Assembly (NCBI GenBank): GCA_900128565.1
Contig: LT635940.1
Coordinates: forward strand, 1-37,354
Reading direction: 5' to 3'
DNA length: 37,354 bases
DNA from: Stramenopiles sp. TOSAG23-6
Lineage: Eukaryota
Positions 2 through 36,679 of the stretch are shown here, in pieces (the first letter of the stretch is position 1; each line of letters starts with the position of its first letter). A model generated the notes under the pieces. That model had not been told where the DNA came from and searched no databases. It was given only the letters and a program-made list of their open reading frames with translations. The position numbers and the translations under genes were made by a program.

Positions 2-1803
2 ATGTCGGTATGGGTGAAGAGTTTTTCAAATATCTTTCTTTCATTGTATTTTCCAGGTAAAATATCAAGAGTTAGATCTGATGGTACTTTTGATATACGA
101 TATGATGATGGTGACTCAGAACAAAGAGTGAAACGATCTCTAATAAAAAAAGAAGAAGATGCTCCAACTGTTGATAAAAGGACGCGTTCGTCACACAGGC
201 ATTCTTCTCACAGCTCGAGTTCATCAGATACTAGTCATGAAAGTAACCATTATACGTCGAAAAAGAAATCACGAAGATCATCTATAAAGACATCTGCATC
301 ATTCTCATCATCTGACTCTTCACCGAGGAAATCAAAAGGTATTAACAAAAGGAAGAAAATATACAGACAAATAACAAGCGATAGATATAATAGAAATAAA
401 TCGTCTGATTCTAACCTTAGTGATCATACTAGTGCTACTTCTAATAGCTCAAATGCAATGAATTCATACTTCGAAAGTGAGTTTTTATTTGGTGATGTCG
501 TGCGTATTTTAAATGAGAAAAGTAGTAAATCAAAAAAGAATGAAAATCGTACAATCTATGGTGAAATTATTCTTGTGCGGTACGTTTTCATTATATTTCG
601 ATACACATTGTAAATATTTCCTTAATAATTATTGTTCTATCATATACAAACTTTTTCTCATGACAAAAACGATTTATATATGTCATTTTCTACAGCGCGG
701 ATGGGACATATGATGTTGAAGTTTTAGTAAATAGTCCTCAAAATAACTCAGATGAACCTAAAATTATTGAAAGACTGAATCGGAGTCAGCTGTCTATGAA
801 ATCACAACAAAGTAACGATGAATGCTCAAATGATGATAATATAAAGAATCGTAAGACAAAAACACATCAATTGAAGAATGCTACGGATTCTGAGAGCCCC
901 GATGTATCAGATGACAGTGAACGCATGAACATTTGGACTCATGTGGAATGCCGTAGCAAAACATACCCCAATGGGCCGTGGTCTTCAGCTCAGATAGTGG
1001 GTAAGAAGTTTCATTCCAAACTTACGAAAAAGTCCAGGAGTCACCACAAGAAGAAAAAAAAGACATCAAGATATAATCAGAGATCGAGTGATAGCGTTAG
1101 TTCTGAGAGTAAGAACAGAGAAAGTGATTCTTCTGCGAATAGTAGTGATAAAGGATCATATGTGTATGATCTATTTTTTGCCGATGGTCATTCAGAGGAA
1201 TCTGTTAGTGCACATAACATTCGCGCTGCTGGTGCCCGTCATGATGATATAAAGGATAATCCTGATGCCCCCCAAAATGCACCAACGTCAAAAATTGCGG
1301 CAAAAATTAGACGGCGAATTAAATATTTATCTGACGATGGTTTTGATTATCGACAACCATTCTTTGAAGCGGACTCTCTTCGTGTGGGAATAATTTCTAG
1401 AAAAGATTTTTTATCAGCTACAAGACAACTTAACTTAAATCTTTCGGACGAGGCTTTATCATTATTAATGGATCGATTTGTTTATGATGCCACAATGCCA
1501 GGATATGTTTGCTACGATTCATTCTTTGCATTCGTTTCTGCACCATTACCCCATGCTTGGTCAATGCCAAAAAAGTTGCAACGTGACAAACCTCTCCAAG
1601 ATTTGACTAAAGAATATCATCATAAAAAACAAAAAAAGAAACACCGCAAAAGTAAAGGCAAACATCGAAATATAAGAACGAGCTCTAAACATTCTTCAAG
1701 GAAAAAAAAAGCATCAAAATTAGACGTACATTTTATTGACCATTCAAATCCATCAGTAGTTGGTTATAAGGATGCAAGATTGGAATGGATAGATCATACA
1801 TAA
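2..1803 (+). CDS. Ser/Lys-rich protein with Tudor-like repeats and a C-terminal EF-hand-like region; probably 5'-partial; exons ~2-579 and 696-1803
   Basis: Tudor-like motifs YFPGKISRVRSDGTFDIRYDDGDSE, ILVRADGTYDV and YVYDLFFADGHSEE, plus an EF-hand-like segment (FFEADSLRVGIISRKDF...GYVCYDSF). Removing GT-AG intron 580-695 joins ORF 2..613 in frame to ORF 796..1803. Confidence 0.7.
580..695 (+). other. Canonical GT-AG spliceosomal intron (116 nt)
   Basis: GTACGT...TTTTCTACAG; splicing gives ...ILVR-ADGTYDVEV in frame. Confidence 0.85.
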
Positions 1804-1861
1804 AACATATTTAATACAGACGAATTTGAAATAGATTATATCTAGTTTAGTAAGATGTATT

Positions 1862-2551
1862 TTATTTAGTCTTGACAAATTTAGCCCAGTTTTCGAATAT
1901 TGGTTCACTGGATGCCAATTGGATACTTAATAATGCTTTTAAATCTATTGTATTATCCTTTACAAACCTAATAAAGTCCTCTTTTTCAATCATTCCATTA
2001 CTGTCTGGATCCATTTCACTAAAAGTTTGAATAACCTTTTCTTGTAATAGTTGCGGATCTGCGTTCGGATTTAACTCAGCTGCAATAGAGAAAATTTCGT
2101 CAGGATCTAGAGCACCATCTTCTGTCCCTCTGTCATATATTTTAAATATTATATCAAGTTTATCGTCAATACTTTTACTTTTCGTAAATTGACAAATAGT
2201 TTCAACGAAATCAATAAAAGTTATATGGTCATCCTCTCGCTTTTGGAAGACTACTAAAGTCTCCAAAGCTCCAGGATTTTTTGAAAAGAAATCAGTTGCC
2301 GCTAAACCTTGGGGTTCGAGATAACCTAAATGATATTCATCGAGAATTTCAAAGCGTGCATGTAGACGCTGCACTTCAGATAAACTTAACTTAAATTTCT
2401 CAGCAATGGAGCCAAGGTCAGCTACACTTAGTTCCACTGGAAGTTTTCCATTGTAGAGTGCGTCTTCTTCGCGTTTTTTCTGACGTTGCGTCAATTCTTT
2501 TGCAGACAAATTTTTACTGACCTTCAATTTAGAAGGAACAAATATAGACAT
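1862..2551 (-). CDS. Calcineurin B-like / NCS-type EF-hand calcium-binding protein
   Basis: 229 aa; EVQRLHARFEILD, ITFIDFV, KLDIIFKIYDRGTEDGALDPDE, QTFSEMDPDSNGMIEKEDF. Confidence 0.85.
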   Translation of the reverse strand: MSIFVPSKLKVSKNLSAKELTQRQKKREEDALYNGKLPVELSVADLGSIAEKFKLSLSEVQRLHARFEILDEYHLGYLEPQGLAATDFFSKNPGALETLVVFQKREDDHITFIDFVETICQFTKSKSIDDKLDIIFKIYDRGTEDGALDPDEIFSIAAELNPNADPQLLQEKVIQTFSEMDPDSNGMIEKEDFIRFVKDNTIDLKALLSIQLASSEPIFENWAKFVKTK

Positions 2552-2894
2552 TATGTCCGATTATTTTGAAAGAACAATCGATCGAGAGAGATGTTGAGAG
2601 ACGTTCTTTCGGTTACTAGTAGGATATTATCGACTTATTGTTTCCTGTGTCTTACTTAGAGGAGGACTTAATTTGCTACCCCCCGAAAACCCGACAGTTT
2701 CATCCTTTTTAAGTAAGCAAGTCATGCTCTAAGTAAGTAAGTCGCTCACTAGTATATCTTTTACGTCAATCTGAGCCAGGATTTCAGACTGATACTTGTT
2801 CCATTGCTATTACAGGCGTACAAACATAGTACAGCGAATGCTCCAGTTAAAAATGCATTTAGTTTTTTGAGAGTGAATTAAAACTAAACTAGCA

Positions 2895-4427
2895 ATGATT
2901 TCAAGAAGTTTTAACGAATTACCGTCACACGGTATGCTCTTGTATCAGTCACACATCAAACCACAACCTGAAACAGTACAGGATCAAGTACAGAAAGAGC
3001 TTCGCAAAGCCCTAGGCGAATCTTTACCTCCAAATAAAGGTGATGCCAGTATACCTTTAGATGTTTTAAATTTATGCTCACGTTTACATCCATATAATTG
3101 GAAAGTTTCAAACCATTCGAAAGAACGTCTTGGAAAGCTTATAAGTCAAAACATATCTTCAGGTGTACGGAGTAGTGGAGATCGATTCCAAAATTGTCCA
3201 GATCCAGTTTTGCCAGGAACATTTATTCAGGGTGAAAATCATAGAAAAGTAGCCAAAATAAGGAAACATTTTTCTGGGATATTTCGTTCCACAGCTCCAG
3301 GTAAATTGAACGAAACGGGAGATACAAAACGCGATAAAGCTGGTAATACATCACCCATGATGCCAGATATTACTAGACCTAATTACACAATGATAAGAAA
3401 CAATATCCATCTCATGCAAACACCAGCAGAACTTGCAGTGCATGTTTTAAATCGACGAAATAAAGCTTTAGCAGCTGCAAAGGCCTCTGAACTTCGTTCA
3501 ATATATCCGGCACCTCACTATATTTACGATATGTCTAATACAATGGAAAATACAATGAAAGAAAGATATTTGAAAAACTCTTCACCCATACCGACATCAA
3601 TTTCAAATAATACACATAAAAAAAAACGGGTTAAGAGTTCTCGCTTGCATTATACTCCAGAGATTCGATTAATAAATAATATACCAAGGAATTTGATGCA
3701 TCGAAACATTTCTACTGCACAGCGTAGATATTCTTACAATATAAAGCATGGAAATAAAAGAAAAAAACAGGGGGGAAATATTCACAAAACAAACTCTTTA
3801 TCTTCATCCAAAGTCGAATCTAAACGTTCGCATTGTGAAGACACGAATTCTAAAAGTTCGGATTCAAATGATGTGAATTCTAATGGTGGGAAAATACACT
3901 TTCGAGTACTAGGAAATACTGGAATCTCACAAAGACAAAGTAAAAATACAAAAACAGGGTTTTTAATAAATCGTAGTAAGCACACAGAGGCTGGTTTTTA
4001 TAAAAAACGGACTAACATTCCTAGATCAAATAATCTTTCTCGCTGGGCATCAACACAACGACAACCATCGAATATTTTTCGCCCTTTATCACAAAGATCG
4101 ATCCGTCCATTCAGTCCTGCACCATGGCATCATGTAGGTTTTCATCATTTCAATTTCATTTGATGTAAACAAAAACTTTGCACCTAACATTTTTTTGTTT
4201 TAAAACATTTTTTTTTCACATTACATGTACGTTTTCAAAATTAATTTCNAANTTAGNTTTTTTTTTCGTACGAAATTTTGTACCTAACAAATTTTGACTA
4301 TACTTTTTTTTTCACATAACATGATACTTCTAGAGGTTATAGTCATCCAGATTTTCCGGATTTTGATTTTCAATTACAAGGAAGTACGAAAGCACTTAAT
4401 GTTTCTGTACATGGACAGCACGAATAA
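2895..4427 (+). CDS. Hypothetical basic protein, ~447 aa after splicing; exons 2895-4133 and 4323-4427
   Basis: The long ORF runs into two tandem repeat elements; removing 4134-4322 continues in frame (PWHH-DTSRGYSHPDF...GQHE*) to TAA at 4425-4427. Confidence 0.7.
4134..4226 (+). mobile_element. Introner-like non-canonical intron, copy 1 (93 nt, GT...AT), diverged
   Basis: cat|GTAGGTTTTCATC...CTTTGCACCTAAC...TTTTTCACATTACAT; homologous to the other copies. Confidence 0.8.
4227..4322 (+). mobile_element. Introner-like non-canonical intron, copy 2 (96 nt, GT...AT), directly abutting copy 1
   Basis: GTACGTTTTC...TTTCGTACGAAATTTTGTACCTAAC...TTTTTCACATAACAT|gat; contains three N bases. Confidence 0.85.
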
Positions 4428-4480: not shown

Positions 4481-6154
4481 TTATTTATTTTTTCCAAGAC
4501 AAACGATCGACATACAACTCAATTCAGGACCATTCTCCCCAATTAATTTATATCGACAACCTCCAGCCACCTTTTGTAATTGTTGATTACTCTTTTGAAA
4601 TTGAGAAAAAGGTGCAGTTACAAGGCGTTTGGAGGCAGAGTGTTGAGTGATTAGTAGCAGCGAACTGTACATATTATTCCTTGACGCAATTGAGTCCAAA
4701 TTTTGCTTCCATTTCGGATCACTTGAAGTACAAAATGTAAATCGATTCTCATTTCTTTGTAATACATTTGGCAAAGCTACACCAACAATAGTGCACCAGT
4801 GACTACGCCGTCCTTTGTTCAACACAGGCAAACATGATCCCGGTTCTGAATCATATGGTAAAAGAATCAGATTACCTTTTGTTATATTGGATATAATGCG
4901 TATAGGAGATATATTTTTCCATACTTGTGTTTGGACAATTTCAGATCGAAATGATGCAATATGTGCAAGATGGGCGGCGTTGAACATTTCTCCATCCATA
5001 GTATAACCAAATCGTATTCCTTTTGATAACACATTCTCATTTTCACCTTTTTCATTTTGTACAAATGTTTGAACTAGTGTTTCCTCTATATTACCAAGTA
5101 GTACAGAAGATTTGCTCAAAGACATGTCTTGAGGACTCACACTACATTGACTACTACACATTTTGTCATCGTTTTTTGTCATCACACTATTCGTTTTTGC
5201 CACCGAACCATTGGATTTTGAAATTGAAGTTGTGTACTGGGCGATATCTTCTATAACTCCCCAAATACCAATGGTGGCAGCTTCCCCATTCGTTTGAAAA
5301 TAACTTTGCCTCAATAATGATAATCTATAAAAATTTTCTACTGCAGAAATAGCACAAAATCCACACGTCGGTCCCATTTGATTATGATGGGGAGGAAGAC
5401 ATGTTATAATTCGCCAAGCTATTGGAGGAGGACACTTGAGAGTAGAACAATTTTTCACAAAAAAATTTATCCCAGAACAGATATCATCAATTATTTCTTG
5501 AAATGTTCGTTTTGTTGGCTGTTTTCTTTGGAAAACATGAGAAATACGCCGTTGTAGCCACACTTTCTCATCTCCAGTTTTCCCTGTATCATCAACAGAG
5601 AAAGTCAAATTATTTGACTTAGTGTATTTTCTTGACTTACTCTGAAGCATTGTTTGAAGTACCGCAAGGCCACTACTTTCACTATCTGGCTCTTTTGAAC
5701 GACGAAGAAAACGGAAAACTTTTTTTTTCGTAGTAAAAGAACTACTCTCTTCATAGCCACATGATTTGTAAAATCCATTTGCCAGTTTTGGTGAAGTACA
5801 AAGGCAAAGATGAGTCATACCTAACCTCTTTGCAACTACTTCTGCCTGAGAAAGTAGATAACGACCGATACCACGACGACGCCAATTGTTGTGTACAATT
5901 ACATTTGATAAAATTCCTTTTGCGCCTGAAATTTCACCTGCTCCATGTTTCAACCGAATATATCCAATGACAATGTTCTCAGGTGATACAAGAACATAAT
6001 GTCTACTTGATTTCACAGATTTCTGTAAACTTGATGTCCACGAAGAATGCGTCGGAGGCTGTTTCCATTGCTGAGCGAGAAGAGTTGCACAAGACGAAAT
6101 AAGAGGAAGGGTTAGCGGAAGAAATGAGAATTCCGACTCTATTCTCTTTGTCAT
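4481..6154 (-). CDS. Fusion of an NAA80-like GNAT N-acetyltransferase and an ACTMAP (C19orf54/UPF0692)-like cysteine protease
   Basis: N-terminal part: LISSCATLLAQQW, VIGYIRL, LSNVIVHNNWRRRGIGRYLL (acetyl-CoA motif A), FYKSCGY. C-terminal part: NQMGPTCGFCAI, GYTMDGEMF, LLPYDSEP, PVLNKGRRSHWC. One uninterrupted ORF; first ATG at 6154. Confidence 0.8.
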   Translation of the reverse strand: MTKRIESEFSFLPLTLPLISSCATLLAQQWKQPPTHSSWTSSLQKSVKSSRHYVLVSPENIVIGYIRLKHGAGEISGAKGILSNVIVHNNWRRRGIGRYLLSQAEVVAKRLGMTHLCLCTSPKLANGFYKSCGYEESSSFTTKKKVFRFLRRSKEPDSESSGLAVLQTMLQSKSRKYTKSNNLTFSVDDTGKTGDEKVWLQRRISHVFQRKQPTKRTFQEIIDDICSGINFFVKNCSTLKCPPPIAWRIITCLPPHHNQMGPTCGFCAISAVENFYRLSLLRQSYFQTNGEAATIGIWGVIEDIAQYTTSISKSNGSVAKTNSVMTKNDDKMCSSQCSVSPQDMSLSKSSVLLGNIEETLVQTFVQNEKGENENVLSKGIRFGYTMDGEMFNAAHLAHIASFRSEIVQTQVWKNISPIRIISNITKGNLILLPYDSEPGSCLPVLNKGRRSHWCTIVGVALPNVLQRNENRFTFCTSSDPKWKQNLDSIASRNNMYSSLLLITQHSASKRLVTAPFSQFQKSNQQLQKVAGGCRYKLIGENGPELSCMSIVCLGKNK

Positions 6155-24262: not shown

Positions 24263-25565
24263 TTATTTTTCTAGTAATTCTTTTGAAAACATAGCGTTCT
24301 GTTTATCATCATTCGCAGTTGCCACTTGGGAACAATCTCCAATGATATAGTTCAGTTTTTTTTTTGATTCTACAGCAATCGGATGGTCAAAAATACAAAT
24401 AGGTAACTGATAAGTATCATTGTAAAAATACTTTCGTTTTACACCTTTCCAAACCTTTTTATCCTGGACTTCAGCAATTGGACAGGGTATATAAGTGGTA
24501 GTAAAACCAAGAGCATCAAGCTCCTGTTGAGCTATTTGAGCGTACACATGTATTTTGGAAAAATATTTCAATTGTTTTTTCGTTAGGTACAAAATTTCGT
24601 ACGAAAAAAAAAATCGATTTTTTTGTTAAAAAAAAAATAAAACATCCACCATGAAAAATAATGTTATCTGGACAAAGTCCATTAAAAAATGAATAACATC
24701 CACCAGGTCTTAAAATCCTAGGCAATTTATGGTGAAACTCTGATTGCTCCCCATAATTCTCTCCATATGTATCAAAATATATACCATCAAAACTTCTATT
24801 ATCAATTTTTTCCATCATATCCTGCCAACGACCATGTAAAATCGTCACTCCTGGTTTCTTATCCCAACCCTCTTTTAACATATAAGCATAGACTTGAGGA
24901 TGGGCTTCAATGATTGTGTGACTACGTGGCTTGCGATCCTGAATATAATTATCAATTATTCCCATTCCAAAACCTACATTTAAAACATCTGCTCCTCGTT
25001 TTTGTTCCCGATTTTTACCAAGGCTAGTGATAACGTCAGCAGAAGCCTCCATCAATGGGCTTTCCCAAGACATCATAACACCGTCTTTGTCCGAGTCTAA
25101 TAGTTGTTTTCCGTCCTCAGTATATTTTACATCTCGTTTAAGATAATCATTGCTATACTTGTTTGGTTCCGCCTTTAAGGTCTCTTTAGAAGTAGACTCG
25201 TTCGTGTGCTCACCAGGTCTGGTACTCATGGAACTTTTTTTCTTCAAGCACGCTAATAAAAGCTCAGAAGTTACCCCAGCATTAACGATACGATCGACAC
25301 ATTTTTGATGTCCAGCTTCTAATGCATAATCACCAGCACATTTATACTGGCGGTCCACTGCGTTCCATGGAGCACCTCTATAGAGCAACTCATTCATAAC
25401 CTCCAAATGACCATGTTGAGCTGCAGCCATTAAAACTGAGGTACCCGTTTCACTTCGCTGATAAAATTGCTCGGCTCCGTCCTTCAGTAACTGACGAACT
25501 AATTTAAAATTACCTGTTACAGCTGCATCCCATAACTGCTCATTTAATACATTGATTTCTGTCAT
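24263..25565 (-). CDS. RMT2: Protein arginine N-methyltransferase RMT2 (ankyrin + GAMT-like domain), 400 aa; exons 25565-24648 and 24547-24263
   Basis: Ankyrin repeats, GAPWNAVD, VMMSWESPLM, VLNVGFGMGIID, HTIIEAHPQV, FDGIYFDTY, YSFFNGLCPDNIIFHG-VYAQI, WKGVKRKYF. Confidence 0.9.
24548..24647 (-). mobile_element. Introner-like non-canonical intron, copy 3 (100 nt, GG...AT)
   Basis: ggt|GGATGTTTTATTT...TTTCGTACGAAATTTTGTACCTAAC...TTTTCCAAAATACAT|gtg; nearly identical to 30181-30279; removal restores the RMT2 frame. Confidence 0.9.
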
Positions 25566-35000: not shown

Positions 35001-35090
35001 ATGTATTTTGGAAAAATATTTCAAAAAAAATCGTTAGGTACAAAATTTACTATAAAACAAAATTCGAATTTAAAAAAAAATAAAACATAC
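35001..35090 (-). mobile_element. Introner-like non-canonical intron, copy 8 (90 nt, GT...AT)
   Basis: agt|GTATGTTTTATTT...TTTTGTACCTAAC...TTTTCCAAAATACAT|gca. Confidence 0.9.
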
Positions 35091-36679
35091 ACTCATTTGG
35101 AAAATTCTCGTAATCAAACCATTGTCCCAATTCACAAAATTTGTATTGTGAAAAAATATTTTACATACGAAATTCGTTAGGTACAAAATTTCAATGAAAA
35201 AATATAAATTCGAAATTCATGATGAAAACATACTGTTTGTGTTCTTGTGGGTAATTATATGTACTCCATGACCCAGTGTATGTTGTTTTCGCAGACATTG
35301 CAGCAATCGCAGCGGATTTATGTATTGTGAAAAAATATTTCAAAAAAAAACGTTAGGTACGAAATTTCGTACGAAAAAAACCTTAAATAAGAAATTCATA
35401 TAAAACGTACATCATCTGCTACTTTCAGAATTCGATCTTTAATCGCAACGCTTCCTTCTACAAATAAAGGCATAATTGTAGATTTTAACCACTCACAGCA
35501 GGTACATGATGGTGCCATTTTGGCGTAAATATACCATTGCATGAAAGGGCCAAAGACGACGAAAATGACTAAACAATTTAAAAGCATTATAGGAGGCATC
35601 CACATCAAAACTTTACTACGATTATTGTTTGGATCATATACACGTTCAAGTTGTCCATGGAAATCTAGATTTGGGCGGAGTTCAAATTCAGGTTCGTATG
35701 GATTAGGAATCTCTTCGTTGACACCTTGACGAGGTAAATTCCATCGATGACAAATGACATGACAATATCTTGTCCAATATTGTTTTAGTAAAGGTCCCCA
35801 AACACACGTAATCAATATACCTGTTATAGTTAATAACATCACATAAGCATTCCAATGAAAAAGAGAAACCACCCATAGACATGCACCAGTAATTCCTATA
35901 GGTACTATAAGAATTGTGTAGAATTGCACAAATGCAAAGTATAAAGCTACACGTTCGCCAAAATGATTTCGGATTTCGTCAACAAGCCAATCCGCACGAG
36001 CCCGAGCAACAGATGGAAATAAAGTACAATTTTTATTCATATACATTTTATGTAGCCACTTATTCCAGATTTGATCTTGTAGCGGATACATTGCTTTTAT
36101 ACCCAATTCAGGGCAAGAGTGTGCTAAAATTTCAGATTCACTGCCGACAACTGTGCCTAGTGCACGGCGTATAATTCTATCAGTTAAACGCAATTCCTCA
36201 GCATGAGAAAATGTCTGATGTTCAACTTCACCCATTGAACTATCGGTATCTATAATTCCGTATTTAATACGTCTGGCGCGTTCTACTCGCCTTCTCTCGT
36301 GCCTCAAAAGATTATGATCATCAATGCGCCGTTTACCTTTTCGACCGGTAGCCGATAAAAGGACTGTCAGTGTGTGTGCTGTTTCAACAGTTTTTTCTAA
36401 GAGACCGATATGAATTCCAGCTCTACACATTGTTTGTAAGGTCAAAATATGTCGTTCGATAGTATCATGGTCGATATATATATGAGCATCCTGTCCATCT
36501 TTCTGTTTTAGTTTCGACTTTGGTACACAATCTAAAATTAGCGCTATACTATAGCGTAGCCTGTCTTTTGGTGAAGTATCTAAAATATCAAAAAGAGAAC
36601 CGCTGCCGATTTTGCCTACATCAGTTGTTGGTGGCTTCTTTTGTGAAGCCAAAGACATTCCACGCAAAATTTTTGGCAT
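35091..36679 (-). CDS. Anoctamin/TMEM16-like protein, N-terminal half only; exons 36679-35411, 35319-35234, 35140-35091
   Basis: YPLQD, VDEIRNHFGERVALYFAFVQFYT, TM1-TM2, WTRY...RWNL, TM3; the C-terminal TM bundle is absent. Confidence 0.75.
35141..35233 (-). mobile_element. Introner-like non-canonical intron, copy 9 (93 nt, GT...AA)
   Basis: ca|GTATGTTTTCATCATG...TTTTGTACCTAAC...TTCACAATACAA|a; removal reads HKQFCELGQW in frame. Confidence 0.85.
35320..35410 (-). mobile_element. Introner-like non-canonical intron, copy 10 (91 nt, GT...AT)
   Basis: gat|GTACGTTTTATATG...TTTCGTACGAAATTTCGTACCTAAC...TTCACAATACAT|aaa. Confidence 0.9.

Follow-up and report, generated by a model that had tools for sequence, protein, structure and literature searches.

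Both merged introners and zero-length exons have been published before. Introner elements nested in or merged with one another are known from Micromonas CCMP1545 (Verhelst et al. 2013, PMC3879977), and introners of the Chrysochromulina type carry their own 5' splice site, the 3' site being supplied by the duplicated target (Gozashti et al. 2022, PMC9860276). In Drosophila, zero-nucleotide ratchet points of the form AG/GT occur in long introns and are conserved (Duff et al., bioRxiv 10.1101/006163), and in S. pombe a zero-length exon lies within a 336-nt intron (bioRxiv 10.1101/226894); both cases were demonstrated by splicing intermediates or lariats. In fungal stwintrons one of the splice signals of the outer intron is usually interrupted by the inner intron, which fixes the order of removal (PMC8469720).

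The window analysed here (the whole 37,354-nt stretch of DNA) carries two copies of a repeated intron placed back to back ahead of the last exon of a gene, an arrangement which we call a twin (Table 1). As in Micromonas CCMP1545, copies of a repeated intron are found inside, or merged with, another copy; unlike the description given for Micromonas (PMC3879977), the copies of the twin meet exactly at a 2-nt duplication which they share, and have AT ends. With the introners of the Chrysochromulina type the family shares repeated introns, a locus-specific duplication, a donor that is carried and an acceptor that comes from the duplication, but the duplication is of 2 nt and mostly AT, instead of the 4 nt supplying AG described there; the available text of PMC9860276 contains no mention of twins.

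The 3' and 5' splice sites adjoin with no exon between them, as at a ratchet point, in the form AT/GT if the introns are read as GT..AT. As in Drosophila and S. pombe, an acceptor abuts a donor and the donor is rebuilt after the first cut, and the S. pombe intron is also short. Unlike the Drosophila AG/GT points, the twin has AT/GT, is made of two mobile copies and shows no intermediate among the RNA contigs. The AG/GT feature, absent here, was present in one of 26 twins of this genome (L178). The twin works like a ratchet-capable unit but lacks AG/GT, and is not classed as a ratchet point. Like fungal stwintrons, some of which have spread as repeats, it consists of two short U2 units within one intervening sequence; unlike them, both copies are whole, either order of removal gives the same join and a short duplication is present (PMC8469720). 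Identity as a stwintron was rejected: neither copy interrupts the donor, the branch motif or the acceptor of the other. Many non-canonical U2 introns of Fritillaria also lack a terminal AG (PMC13326754); the available text of that paper contains neither 'recursive' nor 'nested', and looking for such terms revealed no twins there. No description of GT-AT introners or of twins in marine stramenopiles was found in the literature covered, which lay mostly outside subscription journals.

Table 1. Positions, in the window, of the host-gene exons and of the parts of the twin (a slash marks the point where two splice sites adjoin).
Feature	Positions	Strand	Description	Basis
Host-gene exon 1	2895..4133	+	413 codons	ORF list, parts covered by RNA contigs
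Left AT	4132..4133	+	Exonic copy of the 2-nt target duplication	Sequence
Copy 1	4134..4226	+	93-nt family intron, GTAGGT donor, end ..CACATTACAT	
Copy 1 branch motif	4181..4188	+	CACCTAAC, 38 nt upstream of the copy end; putative branch role	
Zero-length junction AT/GT	4225..4228	+	Copy 1 end abuts copy 2 donor	Sequence, X3 DNA contig
Copy 2	4227..4322	+	96-nt family intron, GTACGT donor, end ..CACATAACAT, three Ns	
Copy 2 branch motif	4281..4288	+	TACCTAAC; putative branch role	
Host-gene last exon	4323..4427	+	34 codons and TAA	Translation, joined to exon 1 in X8 contig

The first-pass annotation of this DNA had described two elements back to back around a zero-length exon, each with its own CCTAAC, and this description holds. 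Copy 1 (GTAGG..TTACAT) ends at 4226 and copy 2 (GTACG..TAACAT) begins at 4227; both begin with a GT donor, contain YACCTAAC and end in ..ACAT, and ACCTAAC starts at 4182 in copy 1 and at 4282 in copy 2. Also as predicted, removal of the 189 nt leaves the gene in frame, giving a protein of 447 aa (...APWHH/DTSRGY...HE, then the stop). By translation, retention of copy 1 leads to a stop at 4161-4163 after 422 aa, and retention of copy 2 only to a stop after 418 aa, so that either copy left in produces a stop at most 10 codons downstream.

The assembly comprises 21.1 Mb in 6236 contigs, and its DNA is found in seawater metagenomes. A search with the host protein among 6008 candidates (lengths 227-723) returned one match, the same gene from another individual, and no other homologue against which the last exon could be compared. 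No Pfam family was found in the host gene when the public gene call P0001 was searched; P0001, from the contig of the other individual, runs into copy 1 and stops early. The neighbouring gene (4481-6148, minus strand) contains a GNAT domain and an ACTMAP-like domain within one frame.

Assembled contigs of four sequencing runs were aligned to positions 400-4248. A polyadenylated RNA contig of run X8 (152 nt, depth 3.9) matched 4069-4134 with zero differences and continued in an 86-nt loose end, of which the 30 letters shown are those of 4324-4353. Since G is common to 4134 and 4323, this contig joins 4133 to 4323 exactly and represents the precise removal of 189 nt, in one contig from one study. 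It lacks both copies, which speaks against an mRNA that retains copy 1, the outcome that the first-pass annotation had named as contrary to its reading. As both ends carry CATG, the RNA establishes how many nucleotides were removed and not the register of the cut. In RNA runs X5 and X9 the junction is uncovered, which was counted as no evidence either way. Forms lacking only one unit were not seen among the RNA contigs, of which only those of run X8 reach the junction and which drop rare forms. Records of 31 nt at 4171-4202 in X3 and X8, considered as intron retention, turned out to be other copies of the family (with 3 differences apiece among the rows shown).

In run X3, one DNA contig (2585 nt) spans 1651-4248 with 14 differing letters and therefore comes from another individual. 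It crosses 4226/4227 with zero insertion, so that the other individual carries copy 1 followed by the beginning of copy 2; the aligned stretch includes the first 22 letters of copy 2, which supports the junction but is below the bar of 31 letters for formal 'bridging', and ends upstream of the Ns (4249, 4252 and 4257, all within copy 2) and of the 3' half.

The same data bear on an artefact, in which an amplification chimera or a collapsed assembly would hide an exon between the copies, or the mRNA would retain copy 1. The assembly does contain inversions of the amplification type and duplicates: positions 1-55 of the window are a perfect inverted copy of 3544-3598 in the host gene, probably an amplification chimera, and some contigs are repeated. 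In addition, copy 2 contains Ns and the X3 contig extends only 22 letters past the junction. Against this, an independent DNA contig shows the same junction, with no intervening sequence of the kind that collapse would have concealed, and the RNA contig joins 4133 to 4323 with nothing in between. The artefact is largely refuted already and we consider it extremely improbable; the locus adds direct RNA support for the exact excision of two AT-ending copies. Contigs C2 and C4 look mirror-symmetric over their whole length in the list of branch motifs.

The intron family is not a product of chance, since its branch motif had 10,342 matches in the genome against 39 for a reversed control. Many similar introns at unrelated gene positions are what is expected of introners, as is precise removal from the mRNA, seen here in the X8 join of 4133 to 4323 (one contig, one study). 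In the RPC1 gene, motifs of the protein were restored on removing four family copies. Solitary copies (n = 188, called from fetched loci and not a random sample) had a median length of 100 nt; 145 of the 188 ended in AT, 9 in AG, and 139 had AT on the left. The same non-AT dinucleotide was found on both sides of 16 of the 188, whereas 10,000 shuffles gave 1.8 on average and at most 8. The dinucleotide match is thus locus-specific, as for a target-site duplication. The family prefers insertion at (C)AT/G, and its 2-nt duplications are mostly AT. The only terminal inverted repeat in the consensus is GTAT..ATAC, of 4 nt (6 including AT); such repeats are known in some introner families only. In three minus-strand copies (24550-24647, 35003-35090 and 35143-35233) the left and right flanking dinucleotides differ, and the first of these begins with GG when read as GT..AT.

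At most family sites, including the twin, the cut can be written as GT..AT or as AT..AC. We infer the GT..AT register, since a GT..AG intron of the window spliced in X8 begins with the same GTACGTTTTC, AG is commoner at the right end than at the left (9 vs 3), and the genome contains a U2 snRNA with GTAGTA, the usual stretch for pairing with the branch site. The intron at 580-695, GT..AG and spliced in X8, begins with the family's GTACGTTTTCATTAT and lacks the family branch motif; it is possibly an old family copy that gained AG. Introns of the U12-type AT-AC class have AT..AC ends, the donor ATATCCTT and a branch site 10-20 nt from the end. The RNA join is equally compatible with AT..AC, yet in that register the donor would read ATGTAGG or ATGTACG; the end is also 31-48 nt away from the branch motif, and this identity was rejected. 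A search for U12 snRNA in the incomplete assembly gave zero matches, as it did in the control genomes. The AT-ending family is itself a more striking matter than the twin, and constitutes a separate finding.

Tandem pairs were counted, as the first-pass annotation had proposed, and the arrangement proved to be frequent and expected in this genome. A search of the fetched loci starting from the junction gave 35 candidates, among which 26 are clear family-family twins, including 4134-4322. This is a lower bound, the loci being drawn from the first 100 of 153 pattern matches in one case and from a minority of 132 in another. The nine excluded candidates were five exons starting with GTAYGTT, two cases with a decayed second end and two with a longer, non-family second intron; the GTAYGTT exons account for 5 of the 19 distinct junction-pattern matches (L067 with two duplicates, L068, L081, L086 and L087). 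Five further twins (L004, L083, L110, L201 and L205) have decayed or are truncated at the edge of a contig, and all of these together bring the genome to about thirty.

Under a strict pattern there were 9 matches with a zero-length exon, 13 (8 distinct) with an exon of 2-32 nt between the copies and 94 with an exon of 64-94 nt. According to target weights, the two edges of a copy surpass an average coding position as targets by factors of approximately 16 and 17. With these weights, 8-12 twins were expected from the rate of 2-32-nt exons and 90 from that of 64-94-nt exons, in a simple position-weight model with the background taken from this window only. A special excess of zero-length exons was accordingly rejected (9 observed vs 8-12 expected). 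The target preference, by which the edges offer (C)AT/G, produces a spike of twins at zero exon length, and this spike sits inside a zone in which neighbouring insertions are scarce. Exons of 2-32 nt are about seven times rarer than those of 64-94 nt (13 vs 94), which could be due to nucleosome-spaced insertion or to selection against microexons. Apparent microexons of 3 and 5 nt separate two copies at L092 (C78) and L161 (C1597).

The best explanation for the locus, with a probability of roughly 0.55, is that of a neutral twin of the introner family, mostly removed in two ordinary steps. The donor, the branch motif and the 3' end are normal in both units and spaced as usual, so that the U2 spliceosome would most often remove the twin in two ordinary reactions. 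Excision of copy 1 first would place the donor of copy 2 next to the left AT and rebuild CAT/GTACG (the recursive route), excision of copy 2 first would rebuild ..TACAT/GATAC, and a single jump from the donor at 4134 to the end at 4322 would give the same join. Since every route leads to one mRNA, the twin can be tolerated and no function is needed. The four splice-site scores of the twin all lie within the span seen in 287 solitary copies. This favours a pair of normal reactions under intron definition; a preference for the smallest possible intron has been stated for fungi whose introns are short (PMC8469720). Removal of the whole pair as one unit opened the frame in 8 of 8 testable twins (4 and 4 in the controls). 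Stepwise removal is somewhat favoured as the main route. The two routes offered by the first-pass annotation, recursive splicing or a single composite intron, are not exclusive of each other; removal of copy 2 first, which it had not listed, gives the same mRNA, and the routes are indistinguishable in the contig data.

As a single composite intron, the twin would be spliced by one reaction from the donor at 4134, by way of the second branch motif, to the end at 4322, and the inner junction would be a decaying relic. Close pairs of branch motifs bear on this. Among the first 100 of 153 matches listed there were 93 distinct pairs: 16 rows (15 loci) had an intact zero-exon junction, one a scored short exon and one a gap, and 75 had no complete inner junction, a few of these being true short exons or chance motifs in exons. 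When junction-less pairs, filtered by flank length and outer sites, were removed as one unit of 151-212 nt, the frame opened in 19 of 22 (6 and 9 of 22 in the shifted controls). A single step over 150-210 nt is thus evidently workable in this genome, and the greater number of junction-less double introns of equal length indicates that an inner junction is dispensable. The absence of a one-unit intermediate from the RNA contigs points weakly the same way, as contigs drop rare forms. These observations nevertheless establish an ability and not a preference: many of the junction-less pairs are products of internal duplication and were without a junction from the start, several rows being identical after both branch motifs, and the inner sites of the twin score within the normal range. 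The preference for the smallest intron in fungi also argues against a single reaction, and we regard it as less likely than stepwise removal to be the main route. Double copies at L170, L172, L183 and L195 (C2061, C2186, C2747 and C3175) are fused via short shared words, with both the inner end and the donor lost; three of the four are identical after both branch motifs.

Alternatively, selection could maintain the twin as an obligatory ratchet point of the Drosophila type, removal in steps being either required or under regulation. An acceptor and a donor adjoin, their signals are intact and the arrangement was seen in two individuals; yet twins are not enriched over expectation, the intron is only 189 nt long and junction-less doubles of such length are common. 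Selection of this kind is very unlikely. Most likely, the twin is a tolerated by-product of the spread of an unusual intron family.

As to its origin, the first-pass annotation had proposed that one element inserted at the terminal AT of another. That both elements are family introns, and that both are removed, was borne out; insertion at the terminal AT is not established, as local copying fits the 3' features which the copies share. Family copies sit at 2-nt duplications and both edges of a resident copy would offer (C)AT/G, so that a second copy, probably copy 2, may have arrived at the shared AT. The best genome matches are 88% over approximately 100 nt for copy 2 and 80% over 92 nt for copy 1, and the 5' half of copy 1 is more decayed than that of copy 2; for these reasons copy 2 is probably the later part. 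We give an origin from a second insertion an even chance. The statement that the twin is not a simple recent tandem duplication stood up well: 76% of random family pairs score as high as the two 5' halves and 26% as high as the two 3' halves, the copies differ in 5' subtype, and a recent whole-element duplication was rejected.

Local DNA copying in place of a second transposition, which bears on the origin alone and agrees with both splicing routes, is a somewhat less likely alternative. In this scheme a strand ending at the terminal AT of copy 1 would switch to the start of another family copy, copy a fresh 5' half as far as the branch motif, return to its own motif and recopy the old 3' end; in a variant, later gene conversion would have made the two 3' tips alike. 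Both copies have T at -6, found in 4% of 247 solitary copies, and a run of 9 T (at least 8 T in 24 of the 247), and a shared 3' tip counts against two independent insertions. Across the genome, an uncommon 3' allele was common to both copies in 4 of 26 twins, compared with 2.4% of random pairs (p 0.003), and two of the 26 (L080 and L178) have identical last 30 nt and different 5' halves. Five twins have shared 3' features (L002, L080, L096, L175 and L178), and in all of them the second 5' half was the one closer to the family sample. Compared with exon-separated neighbours in the same gene, however, the difference was not significant (4 of 26 vs 8 of 155, p 0.074); the features were chosen after looking, 22 of the 26 twins lack such sharing, and the 3' halves of the present twin, taken whole, resemble each other no more than those of random pairs do. 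An initial test, on 17 pairs picked by hand, had given p 0.0005, and was weakened by the wider set and by the neighbour control.

A more speculative reading, which we judge improbable, is that mobile introns build recursive-splicing points from scratch, with twins removed stepwise via AT/GT in a 190-nt intron and part of them arising by a transposase-free template switch. If so, about 30 twins with intact junctions and dozens of junction-less doubles would form a natural series showing the birth and loss of such points. The present twin is a clean test case. Should one-unit intermediates exist, an acceptor without AG can serve as a ratchet point although the intron is very short, and such points can originate from mobile introns; should there be none, the spliceosome passes a complete upstream intron end, which would inform the choice of the 3' end in a family without AG.

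Unusual junctions were seen at L151, L178, L201 and L205, where the dinucleotide common to both copies is TT, AG or GT, or where the junction is AC/GT; at L205 the AC of the first copy is followed directly by the next GT. At L010 (C4072) and L194 (C3159), the region of the branch motif is repeated at least three times with a spacing of approximately 47 nt.
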